Source: Escherichia coli O127:H6 str. E2348/69 (GTDB taxonomy: Bacteria; Pseudomonadota; Gammaproteobacteria; Enterobacterales; Enterobacteriaceae). From it: 64,000 bases of DNA. Below, in pieces: positions 41,772 to 43,056 of the stretch. The stretch lies in the NCBI RefSeq assembly GCF_000026545.1, contig NC_011601.1. One strand, 5' to 3'. Every line of letters begins with the position of its first letter. The stretch's first letter is position 1. Position numbers and translations under genes: made by a program. The notes below the pieces were generated by a model. The model was not told the DNA's origin, searched no databases, and saw only the letters and a program-made list of their open reading frames with translations.

Positions 41772-42147
41772 AAATTATCCTTATTTATTTTTAGGGTACC
41801 GTCCGGCGGTAAAAATAAAATACGCGTACAAATTAACGAAAGCAATTGGACACATGAAAGGAGAAACTCCACAAGCAAAAATAACAAAACATTAAATAAC
41901 AACAACATGAAATAAGATTTTAAAAAGTCAATTATAAATCTGTTAAGTAAACTACAAAATCAAAAAATTATTCATCACTATATTTGTGATACACATCTCT
42001 ATTTTCCTATTGAATGTTCGAAAACATACTTATTGCGTTTATTATTTTTTCGCTCATCCCCTTTATAAATTCTGAATTATCGCCTGTTGTCTGTTTTCTC
42101 CTCACCTCATGTGACATATTTCCATACTTTACTCAAGGAAGATTCAC

Positions 42148-43056
42148 GTGAAAGCACCTGTTTCAATAACTTCATTCCGCCCACAAAAATCTCTTGCTAT
42201 CGCCATTGGCGTGCTTGCCGTGATTGTGCTGCCATTTCTCTCGTATTACACCGTTAATGAAGGTGAACGCGGCATTTTGCTGCGCTACGGAAAAATCGTA
42301 AAAGTTGCCGAGCCGGGGCTGGGTTTTAAGATCCCTTTTATGGAAAGCGTGGAGAAAATTTCCACGCGTAATCAGGCTGTGGTCTACCAGGGATTACAGG
42401 CTTACAGCCGCGACCAGCAACCAGCACAAATGACAGTATCAGTCAGCTTCCACATTAAACCTTCAGAAGCAGGCGCGGTTTATACCACCTACAACACCAT
42501 TGAAGCATTAAAAGATCGTCTGATTGTCCGTCAGTTGCCAACTCAACTGGAGAACGTTTTCGGCCAATATACCGCCATCAGCGCCGTACAGGATCGTACA
42601 AAACTGGTTCAGGATCTGCAAAATGCCATGCGCAAAGCCGTTGTTGGGCCAGTGGTAATTGACGGGGTCCAGATTGAAAACATCGATTTTTCTGACGCTT
42701 ATGAAAAGTCGATTGAAGACCGAATGAAAGCAGAAGTCGCCATTGCCACGCGTAAGCAAAATCTGGAAACGGAGAAAATCCAGGCGCAAATAGCGGTAAC
42801 TCAGGCCCAGGCGGAAGCAGACAGTAAACTGGCGGCAGCCAAAGCAGAAGCGGAAACTATTCGCGTAAGAGGCGCGGCAGAGGCTGAAACTATTCGTTTA
42901 AAAAGTGCGGCTGAAGCAGAAGCTATCCGCCTGCGCGGTGAAGCTCTGCGGGAGAATCCCGGACTTGTTGCCCTCACCACTGCTGAGCGTTGGGACGGTA
43001 AACTGCCCGATACCATGATCCCCGGCAGCACAGTTCCGTTTATCTCTACTAAGTAA
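42148..43056 (+). CDS. SPFH/Band-7 (stomatin/prohibitin-like) membrane protein with C-terminal coiled-coil repeats
   Basis: GTG start preceded by AAGGAAG; N-terminal TM helix; SPFH core; C-terminal repeats (AEAETIRVRGAAEAETIRLKSAAEAEAIRLRGEAL). Confidence 0.75.
   Translation: MKAPVSITSFRPQKSLAIAIGVLAVIVLPFLSYYTVNEGERGILLRYGKIVKVAEPGLGFKIPFMESVEKISTRNQAVVYQGLQAYSRDQQPAQMTVSVSFHIKPSEAGAVYTTYNTIEALKDRLIVRQLPTQLENVFGQYTAISAVQDRTKLVQDLQNAMRKAVVGPVVIDGVQIENIDFSDAYEKSIEDRMKAEVAIATRKQNLETEKIQAQIAVTQAQAEADSKLAAAKAEAETIRVRGAAEAETIRLKSAAEAEAIRLRGEALRENPGLVALTTAERWDGKLPDTMIPGSTVPFISTK

Follow-up and report, generated by a model that had tools for sequence, protein, structure and literature searches.

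An SPFH gene between cmtB and tktA in Escherichia coli E2348/69, probably an old resident lost from K-12 and likely encoding a periplasmic cage protein

In E. coli K-12 MG1655, cmtB and tktA are neighbours, and the 313-bp gap between them contains no gene. In E. coli E2348/69, an SPFH gene lies at this position. The locus raises two questions: was the gene gained by one lineage or lost by the other, and what might its product do? The gene was studied in a window of 64,000 nt from E2348/69 (the window is the whole stretch of DNA that was analysed). A preliminary description of this stretch had given the K-12 arrangement correctly, and had proposed the gene as a candidate accessory insertion. 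The analyses presented here suggest a different history. The gene is best explained as an intact, vertically inherited fifth SPFH gene of E. coli that was lost in K-12, with a product that likely forms a homo-oligomeric cage in the periplasm. We assign this reading a probability of roughly 60%.

The coding sequence and its ribosome-binding site were located as follows.

42148..43056, plus strand: coding sequence of a 302-aa SPFH/Band-7 protein, WP_000646933.1 (ORF list, Pfam, RefSeq, allele alignment).
42135..42141, plus strand: Shine-Dalgarno sequence AAGGAAG, kept in all Escherichia alleles (alignment).

The gene is flanked by cmtB (41328-41771) and tktA (43276-45267), both on the minus strand. 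The start codon, 8 nt after the Shine-Dalgarno sequence, is GTG in E2348/69, whereas the ten other alleles and orthologs examined all begin with ATG. The translated product is identical to the RefSeq entry of E2348/69, which is named "prohibitin family protein". Residues 35-210 match Pfam Band_7 (PF01145) with a score of 111.6 bits (cut-off 23.6; E = 5.6e-32). The 302-aa SPFH-domain membrane protein first described from the sequence is thus confirmed by Pfam and RefSeq.

A profile of the gene's family ranked HflC first (2.7e-20), above HflK (1.6e-12), prohibitin (7e-11), QmcA, and stomatin; PHB2 was matched at 1e-10. The protein fell short of the NCBIfam equivalog models: it scored 59.7 bits with the HflC model TIGR01932 and 37.4 bits with the HflK model TIGR01933, far under the cut-offs of 134.4 and 159.4, respectively. 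In structure-based alignments, it shares 17-23% identity with the HflC, HflK, and QmcA chains. The nearest kin of the protein are HflC, HflK, and prohibitin, and it is the ortholog of none of them. It adds a fifth member, of the HflK/C-prohibitin type, to the E. coli SPFH proteins HflK, HflC, QmcA, and YqiK. The preliminary description had kept it apart from these four, and the subfamily comparison, with a clear Band_7 match and scores below both equivalog cut-offs, agrees with that view.

The distribution of the gene was surveyed in 5,426 complete E. coli genomes. The CDS is carried by 1,830 of them, and at least 80% of it is retained in 1,818 of these carriers. The K-12-type empty junction was found in 3,595 genomes (3,140 of these at 99% identity or more). 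Carriers and empty junctions account for all but one of the genomes (5,425/5,426), and the locus is a two-state polymorphism. The gene is therefore variable, as had been supposed; an assembly error is excluded, since the same arrangement recurs in more than 1,800 complete genomes. The carriers include E2348/69 and LF82, which are B2 strains like ATCC 25922; K-12, O157:H7, and ETEC have the empty junction. The spread inside Escherichia is patchy, with the gene present in O145 and missing in O157. E. fergusonii, E. marmotae, and E. ruysiae are absent among the SPFH matches listed. This patchy distribution, and the lack of the gene in K-12 and 66% of the genomes, would be in line with a horizontal insertion, by which a mobile element or phage delivered the gene and its AT-rich leader to the cmtB-tktA gap of some E. 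coli lineages, where H-NS may silence them.

The position of the gene across genera speaks against such an insertion. The order cmtB-SPFH-tktA is found in E. albertii, E. whittamii, Escherichia sp. MOD1-EC7003, and E. coli SCPM-O-B-8794. At least four Escherichia species or lineages have the gene convergent with tktA, as do Pseudocitrobacter (SPFH-tktA) and a Kluyvera-like genome (epd-SPFH-tktA). In Klebsiella spallanzanii, it follows epd, and the contig ends short of tktA. The junction with tktA contains the following elements.

43060..43081, minus strand: GC-rich hairpin AAGGGCCGCGAAAGCGGCCCTT, with a T-run on the minus strand (allele alignments).
43093..43233, no strand assigned: REP/BIME-type repeat unit between two hairpin copies (allele alignments).
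43234..43255, minus strand: second hairpin copy, the terminator proximal to tktA, whose stop codon (43276) is 20 nt away (alignments).

The REP unit is missing in strains VTB96959v and EC1, and is triplicated in Escherichia sp. MOD1-EC7003. In the REP-less alleles, a single hairpin AAGGGCCGCGAAAGCGGCCCTT separates the stop codons of the SPFH gene and tktA; this hairpin is the tktA terminator. The same junction, consisting of stop codon, hairpin, 20-nt spacer, and tktA stop codon, is found in Pseudocitrobacter and the REP-less E. coli alleles. No integrase, tRNA, or flanking direct repeat was detected at the locus; the sole direct repeat is the hairpin duplicated around the REP unit. Two Rfam candidates, ES036 (43127-43169, the sole above-threshold match) and naRNA4 (below threshold), were both read as REP-derived and rejected.

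Composition and divergence also fit a resident gene. The GC content (49.8%), GC3 (47.5%), and CAI-like index (0.61) are all inside the range of the neighbouring genes, and the codon-usage comparison with the flanking genes gave no foreign signature. The synonymous divergence is similar to that of the neighbouring cmtA: dS is 0.71 vs 0.54 for cmtA to E. albertii, and 0.33 vs 0.37 to E. whittamii. The gene is intact in all 11 alleles and orthologs examined. The dN/dS values of 0.016-0.072 within Escherichia show that it is under purifying selection.

The AT-rich DNA upstream of the gene had been taken as a mark of acquisition. This region holds three features.

41772..42147, no strand assigned: AT-rich divergent intergenic region between cmtB (minus) and the SPFH gene (plus), 376 bp, 29.5% GC (composition, alignments).
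41985..42000, plus strand: CRP-like box TGTGATACACATCTCT, aligned with TGTGATCTACAACACG of K-12 and ETEC.
42067..42078, plus strand: conserved palindrome AAATTCTGAATT, about 70-80 nt before the start codon (cross-genus alignments).

The GC content is indeed low compared with 51.7% for the whole window, which would favour an insertion. However, the AT-rich stretch is also present in K-12, at 32.9% GC and with the CRP site, which speaks against its being a mark of acquired DNA. The first 50-80 bp or so beside cmtB are near-identical to K-12; the middle part is hypervariable between haplotypes; the last 90 bp or so are conserved among carriers. The sequence TGTGATCTACAACACG is the CRP site found by ChIP-seq in ETEC H10407 and assigned there to cmtB (PMC4287617). 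The CRP pattern matched 34 times in the window, with 26.6 matches expected, which is not significant alone; the CRP-like box is credible only because it is aligned with the ChIP-seq site (PMC4287617). The AT-rich stretch is largely the regulatory region of cmtB. The palindrome AAATTCTGAATT recurs unchanged at the Kluyvera-like locus and nearly so in Pseudocitrobacter and Klebsiella; it may serve the SPFH gene as a promoter or operator element. A scan for sigma-70 promoters gave no enrichment over shuffled sequence. A 45-aa ORF at 42014-42151 was rejected as not conserved: VTB96959v and EC1 lack its ATG, and 1-nt indels disrupt the frame.

Taken together, the conserved site and junction, the normal GC content, the low dN/dS, the cmtA-like dS, and the AT-rich DNA in K-12 suggest that K-12 carries a loss allele. 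A horizontal insertion is largely refuted by the conserved gene order, and we consider it highly improbable for this gene. Mobile relatives do exist: phages and integrative elements often carry members of the family, the closest mobile relatives among them, and horizontal movement of the family therefore does occur.

As an old resident of Escherichia and its relatives among the Enterobacteriaceae, the SPFH gene would have stood beside tktA. Roughly two thirds of E. coli, K-12 among them, would then have a single near-uniform loss allele, in which the proximal promoter, the CDS, and the REP unit were removed and the cmtB regulatory part of the AT-rich region was kept. The empty K-12 allele is no clean excision of any carrier haplotype seen. 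The intergenic DNA kept in it is 54-75% identical to that of E2348/69, and the empty junction has its own hairpin, AAAAAAGGTCGCCGAAGCGACCTTTTT, unlike the carrier hairpin in sequence. As the K-12 junction differs from the carrier haplotypes, the loss may be old, or the allele may have spread by recombination. Considering the patchy distribution in Escherichia, ancestral presence implies several losses or allele exchange.

A gene lost so often might also be a cryptic, barely expressed remnant without a present role, which is heading for loss everywhere. It adjoins the cryptic cmt operon, it is gone from two thirds of the genomes, and GTG is the weaker start codon; literature searches yielded no study of the gene in E. 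coli, no expression data, and no phenotype. Against this, the gene is constrained (dN/dS 0.02-0.07) and nearly complete in almost all carriers, and cross-species conservation extends to the promoter-proximal block and the Shine-Dalgarno sequence. Decay to a remnant therefore seems very unlikely.

The coding sequence was divided as follows.

42187..42243, plus strand: single N-terminal transmembrane helix, residues 14-32 (AF2 model, charge analysis).
42244..42690, plus strand: SPFH (Band 7) α/β domain, residues 33-181 in the model (Pfam, AF2, Foldseek).
42694..42954, plus strand: one unbroken 87-residue helix, residues 183-269, the counterpart of the wall-forming helix of SPFH cages (AF2, Foldseek).
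42844..42930, plus strand: 33-bp tandem repeat, 2.6 copies, encoding 11-residue AEAExIR units (TRF, ortholog alignments).
42880..43053, plus strand: conserved C-terminal module, residues 245-302, GEALRxNPG...ERW(D/N)GKLP...IPGxxVPFI (phrog_38808 match, alignments).

The AF2 monomer model (pLDDT 83) consists of the transmembrane helix, the SPFH domain, and one long helix; the last 30 residues are of low confidence. Full-length Foldseek matches (E 1e-12 to 1e-17) were obtained with the cage protomers of HflC (2.5e-17), PHB2, erlin1/2, PHB1, HflK, stomatin, and QmcA. The protomer architecture of the model, with an anchor, an SPFH domain, a long helix, and a C-terminal tail, matches that of the solved cages. 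The Ala/Glu-rich C-terminal repeats noticed earlier were recovered by TRF as a 33-bp unit, which encodes AEAETIRVRGA, AEAETIRLKSA, and AEAEAIRLRGE. The 11-residue repeat occurs three times in Escherichia and twice in most other genera. The C-terminal module is common to otherwise divergent phage SPFH proteins, and presumably caps the cage.

The charges flanking the transmembrane helix are +3 on the N side and 0 on the C side, and 88% of 111 homologs likewise have the more positive charge on the N side. This bias favours a predicted N-in/C-out anchor with the SPFH domain in the periplasm. In the proposed arrangement, the single helix would anchor the protein with its N-terminus in the cytoplasm, and the SPFH domain, the 87-residue helix, and the C-terminal tail would lie in the periplasm, as in HflK/C. 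By analogy with solved full-length SPFH proteins, the product would most likely form a homo-oligomeric ring or dome at the inner membrane, on its periplasmic side. Such a dome would enclose a patch of membrane and regulate which membrane proteins can reach a partner such as the FtsH protease. The protein may be linked in this way to FtsH or to membrane-protein quality control.

The cage would function without an NfeD partner. As stated in the preliminary description, no NfeD-like gene lies near the SPFH gene in the window, and none was found at 80 related loci. Clustering of the neighbours at these 80 loci revealed no conserved neighbour, just genus-level gene order. The top non-self cluster was rejected, as it consisted of antisense ORF artefacts in GC-rich genomes. 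The immediate neighbours in Shewanella, Yersinia, Brucella, and others are unrelated (DUF4442, DUF418, a methyltransferase, and binding proteins). At the cmtB-tktA locus and all 80 related loci the SPFH gene is alone, with no pair of the hflK-hflC type.

The protein was compared with the known SPFH systems. HflC and HflK (SPFH3 of Hinderhofer et al. 2009) are its best sequence and fold matches among solved structures; they share the N-terminal anchor, the predicted periplasmic SPFH domain, the long helix, and the C-terminal tail. However, the gene is single, and the protein lacks the long N-terminal extension of HflK and has a different C-terminal module. QmcA-YbbJ and YqiK-YqiJ also have an SPFH domain followed by a coiled coil, and the QmcA protomer 8z5g is a structural match; YqiK is a much longer, flotillin-like protein. 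Both of these systems face the cytoplasm and have an adjacent NfeD gene, whereas the present gene has no NfeD neighbour and its product the opposite predicted topology. The SPFH4 "p-prohibitin" class lacks NfeD, is predicted to be periplasmic, and is unstudied in bacteria (PMC2636767). The protein resembles SPFH4 and the prohibitins in its size (about 270-300 aa), N-terminal anchor, lack of NfeD, RefSeq name, and fold match to the PHB1/2 cage, but it is nearer to HflC by profile score. Eukaryotic prohibitins are PHB1/PHB2 hetero-oligomers, whereas this locus has one gene.

The closeness to HflC and HflK in sequence and fold, together with the same predicted topology, might indicate that the protein joins HflK and HflC in one assembly or takes their place on FtsH. 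E. coli is also one of the unusual genomes in which the SPFH4 type occurs together with HflK/C, a rare exception; in many genomes the SPFH4 type is alone (PMC2636767). The identity to HflC and HflK is only 18-23%, and the C-terminal module matches standalone phage SPFH proteins instead. A role as a subunit or competitor of the HflK/C cage is thus unlikely, and a separate homo-oligomer is preferred. As a point against the proposed cage role, deletions of accessory SPFH genes in Pseudomonas aeruginosa had little or no phenotype; one of the SPFH genes of this species, PaFlo9, is monocistronic (PMC13086221) and may be a relative.

The phage relatives might suggest another function, namely superinfection exclusion, abortive infection, or lysogeny control, for example by modulation of FtsH, as by HflK/C for lambda CII. 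The protein matches the phage profiles phrog_200 (4e-63) and phrog_38808 (1.8e-19). Divergent relatives are common in phages and prophages, with 307 phage records containing one. The full-length identity reaches 46-52% with proteins of jumbo phages (GAP32, Serratia BF, and Yersinia fHe-Yen9-04), and the C-terminal coil and tail also occur in SPFH proteins of prophages and of Bruynoghevirus. Two prophages, one of Salmonella and one with a link to an Stx2a phage record, have a copy in the early region close to xis/int. Phage SPFH proteins are often mis-annotated as "lipoprotein" or "serine protease". In contrast to the phrog_200 proteins of phages, the E2348/69 copy resides in the chromosome at a position that is stable across genera, and is inherited vertically. 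It lies outside any defence island and without partner genes, and the selection on it is strongly purifying, not diversifying. The phage-defence link raised earlier gained no support, as no family of the PADLOC-DB protein models matched the protein at E <= 0.1. A phage-related function of the resident gene is accordingly considered unlikely.

Studies of E. coli membrane microdomains count four SPFH proteins, HflK, HflC, QmcA, and YqiK, on the basis of K-12 (PMC10434171, PMC6788730, PMC12839154). A fifth one, of the least-studied bacterial SPFH type, is present in one third of sequenced E. coli, including the pathogens E2348/69 and LF82. Results from K-12 strains with "all SPFH genes" knocked out would therefore not transfer to carriers. 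The locus provides a natural presence/absence pair for the study of a standalone SPFH protein that is predicted to be periplasmic. More speculatively, and with a low probability, pathogen-rich lineages such as the B2 strains might build a second periplasmic homo-oligomeric SPFH cage, as a rival or helper of HflK/C in the handling of FtsH or other clients. If so, membrane-protein turnover, tolerance of aminoglycosides or oxidative stress, and phage lysogeny decisions would differ systematically between carriers and K-12-type strains, and phages would bring the same module in order to hijack this control point. Otherwise, this is an ordinary conserved gene, already included in the RefSeq annotation. 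As a separate observation, LoiP has 96% identity to K-12.

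The window matches the chromosome of E. coli E2348/69 with 100% identity, and RefSeq gives a CDS with exactly the bounds of the SPFH ORF (WP_000646933.1, "prohibitin family protein"). The gene is therefore already annotated, yet uncharacterised, and the SPFH type itself is known. Literature searches found no studies of the E. coli tktA-adjacent SPFH gene, and papers on E. coli consistently put the number of SPFH proteins at four. The locus contains the following features:

41328-41771, minus strand: cmtB, divergent from the SPFH ORF
42148-43056, plus strand: SPFH ORF, 302 codons, starting with GTG 8 nt downstream of the Shine-Dalgarno sequence AAGGAAG
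42844-42930, plus strand: 33-bp tandem repeat coding for three 11-residue AEAExIR units
43276-45267, minus strand: tktA, convergent with the SPFH ORF

Pfam Band_7 matches residues 35-210 (E = 5.6e-32), and the 376-bp spacer between cmtB and the ORF has 29.5% GC (51.7% in the window). The preliminary description of a 302-aa SPFH/Band-7 protein with C-terminal repeats and an AT-rich upstream stretch was accurate. The start codon (42148-42150) is GTG in E2348/69 and ATG in 10/10 other alleles and orthologs examined; the E2348/69 allele occurs at ≥99% identity in only 4 of 5,426 genomes.

In K-12 MG1655, cmtB adjoins tktA across a geneless gap of 313 bp, in agreement with the preliminary description. 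Across 5,426 complete E. coli genomes the gene proved variable: the SPFH CDS was found in 1,830 (93-100% identity), 1,818 of which retain at least 80% of it, and the K-12-type empty junction in 3,595 (3,140 at ≥99% identity). The two classes sum to 5,425 of the 5,426 genomes, and thus the locus is two-state. The carriers include E2348/69, LF82, ATCC 25922, PMV-1, one O145 strain, and one O139:H1 strain; the empty state was seen in K-12, O157:H7, O111, and ETEC strains. O145 is a carrier whereas O157 is empty, which suggests that recombination swaps alleles at this locus.

The preliminary description took the gene for an accessory insertion. Comparative sequence evidence favours deletion in K-12-type genomes over insertion in the carriers, and the main correction is one of direction: the SPFH gene was lost by K-12 and not gained by E2348/69. 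E. albertii, E. whittamii, Escherichia sp. MOD1-EC7003, and a divergent "E. coli" species representative all have the order cmtB-SPFH-tktA. A Kluyvera-like genome has epd-SPFH-tktA, Pseudocitrobacter has SPFH-tktA, and Klebsiella spallanzanii has fbaA-pgk-epd-SPFH followed by the contig end. The yggC-cmtB block is missing in these three, yet SPFH remains next to tktA (the K. spallanzanii contig ends at SPFH). The SPFH-tktA junction is conserved between E. coli alleles lacking the REP unit (...AAGTAAAAAAAGGGCCGCTTTCGCGGCCCTTCTCACAAAGCATCTTACCGATTACAGCAG) and Pseudocitrobacter (...AAATAAAAAAAGGGCCGCTTTCGCGGCCCTTCTCACAAGTATCTAACCGATTACAGCAG). The dS values of the SPFH gene are near those of cmtA (0.71 vs 0.54 for E. 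albertii; 0.33 vs 0.37 for E. whittamii). The proposed comparison of composition revealed nothing atypical (GC 49.8%; GC3 and codon usage unremarkable), and ORF calls and RefSeq annotation showed no integrase, tRNA, or flanking direct repeat at the locus. A true insertion, which absence from K-12 and the AT-rich flank had been thought to mark, is less well supported in view of these features.

The AT-rich stretch is no mark of foreign DNA, since K-12 keeps a homologous region of 32.9% GC. The K-12/ETEC sequence TGTGATCTACAACACG, which aligns with 41985-42000, is the CRP site that was found by ChIP-seq in ETEC H10407 and attributed to cmtB (PMC4287617). In the empty K-12 allele, everything from ~42035 to the tktA terminator is missing. 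Its hairpin AAAAAAGGTCGCCGAAGCGACCTTTTT is unlike that of the carriers, and the intergenic DNA kept is only 54-75% identical to E2348/69, against 95-97% for the flanking genes. By these sequence comparisons the K-12 allele did not arise by a recent, clean excision; the loss allele thus appears old, and it is uniform and widely spread.

Carriers share a conserved stretch of ~90 bp before the SPFH start codon. It includes the palindrome AAATTCTGAATT (42067-42078, ~70-80 nt ahead of the start), which is exact in the Kluyvera-like locus and near-exact in Pseudocitrobacter and Klebsiella (upstream regions L005, L011, and L092). The palindrome may serve as an operator or promoter element. The ORF is intact in 11/11 alleles and orthologs examined, and its pairwise dN/dS within Escherichia is 0.016-0.072. 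Judged from these sequences, it is a maintained gene; that it is a cryptic remnant, as loss from most genomes might suggest, is less well supported.

The AlphaFold2 model (pLDDT 83) has the following parts:

residues 14-32: transmembrane helix
residues 33-181: SPFH domain
residues 183-269: single continuous helix
after residue 269: C-terminal tail, low confidence

A Foldseek search matched the model over its full length to cage protomers of HflC (2.5e-17), PHB2, erlin1/2, PHB1, HflK, stomatin, and QmcA. A 46-homolog profile ranked HflC (2.7e-20) ahead of HflK (1.6e-12), prohibitin (7e-11), QmcA (8e-8), and stomatin. HflC and HflK are thus the best-ranked profile relatives; however, the protein scores far under the NCBIfam equivalog cut-offs for both, and is therefore a paralogous type and a copy of neither. 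This bears out its separation from hflK and hflC. The charge flanking the anchor is +3 on the N side and 0 on the C side, and the N side is more positive in 88% of 111 homologs. The predicted topology is therefore N-in/C-out, which would place most of the protein in the periplasm, like HflK/C. The sequence contains neither a lipobox nor a cysteine. The C-terminal segment GEALRxNPG...ERW(D/N)GKLP...IPGxxVPFI is its most distinctive conserved feature. Escherichia has three AEAExIR repeats (42844-42930) and most other genera have two, while rare variants in E. coli or E. albertii have one or two.

No conserved neighbour emerged from 80 loci of SPFH relatives in Gamma- and Alphaproteobacteria, and NfeD was absent among the neighbours checked there, in agreement with the earlier failure to see such a partner. 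The fold class, anchor, conservation, and solitary organisation of the gene are established by these analyses. By analogy with all solved full-length SPFH proteins, the protein would probably form a large ring or dome. This would be a homo-oligomer, sitting on the inner membrane's periplasmic face, enclosing a membrane patch and gating client proteins or a protease (FtsH, for example). If so, AEAExIR copy number would alter the length of the wall-forming helix. Co-assembly with HflK/C, with which the protein shares fold and predicted placement, is less well supported than such a homo-oligomer. The "p-prohibitins" (SPFH4) are likewise described as being without NfeD and probably periplasmic, and as unstudied and rarely occurring alongside HflK/C (Hinderhofer et al., PMC2636767); the E. 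coli carriers, with both, would be among the exceptions.

Relatives are common in phages and occur in other mobile DNA as well. The protein matches phrog_200 (4e-63), phrog_38808 corresponds to its C-terminal module, and relatives occur in 307 phage records, with jumbo phages at 46-52% identity. Divergent ~275-aa prophage SPFH proteins have the C-terminal coil and tail in common with it. One copy (L095:2371-3198), close to xis/int in a prophage with a link to an Stx2a phage record, is wrongly annotated as "serine protease", its only domain being Band_7. A Salmonella copy (L093:6001-7263, 62% identical) lies in a lambdoid prophage early region, and a K. oxytoca copy (L094:3475-4903, 71% identical) in an integrative element; an Rrf2-family regulator adjoins both. 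A role in phage-related exclusion or lysogeny control is less well supported, and the suggested phage-defence link found no backing in PADLOC, which gave zero matches for the protein.

Several minor features were observed in and near the locus. At 43060-43255 two copies of the tktA terminator hairpin flank a REP/BIME-type unit, which has no copy in E. coli VTB96959v and EC1 (~174 bp shorter), one in E2348/69, and three in Escherichia sp. MOD1-EC7003. The Rfam hits inside this unit, ES036 above threshold and naRNA4 below it, look REP-derived. CmtB (41328-41771) is only 93% identical to K-12 CmtB, with a cmtB dN/dS of ~0.2 vs E. albertii; CmtA and TktA are ~100% identical to K-12 (rounded tblastn values). 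The CmtB divergence points to relaxed constraint on this gene or to old haplotypes surrounding the indel. An ABC-transporter ATP-binding pseudogene (RefSeq) with an internal stop lies just upstream of yggC (~35772-36445; L001:1-674), where K-12 has epd, a further difference between the two strains inside the window. A gene for a 243-aa hypothetical protein lies between speB and speA in E2348/69 (~47563-48294, minus strand; L001:11792-12523), where K-12 is geneless; a 242-aa gene without a Pfam match occupies a comparable place in the Kluyvera-like loci L005 and L007.
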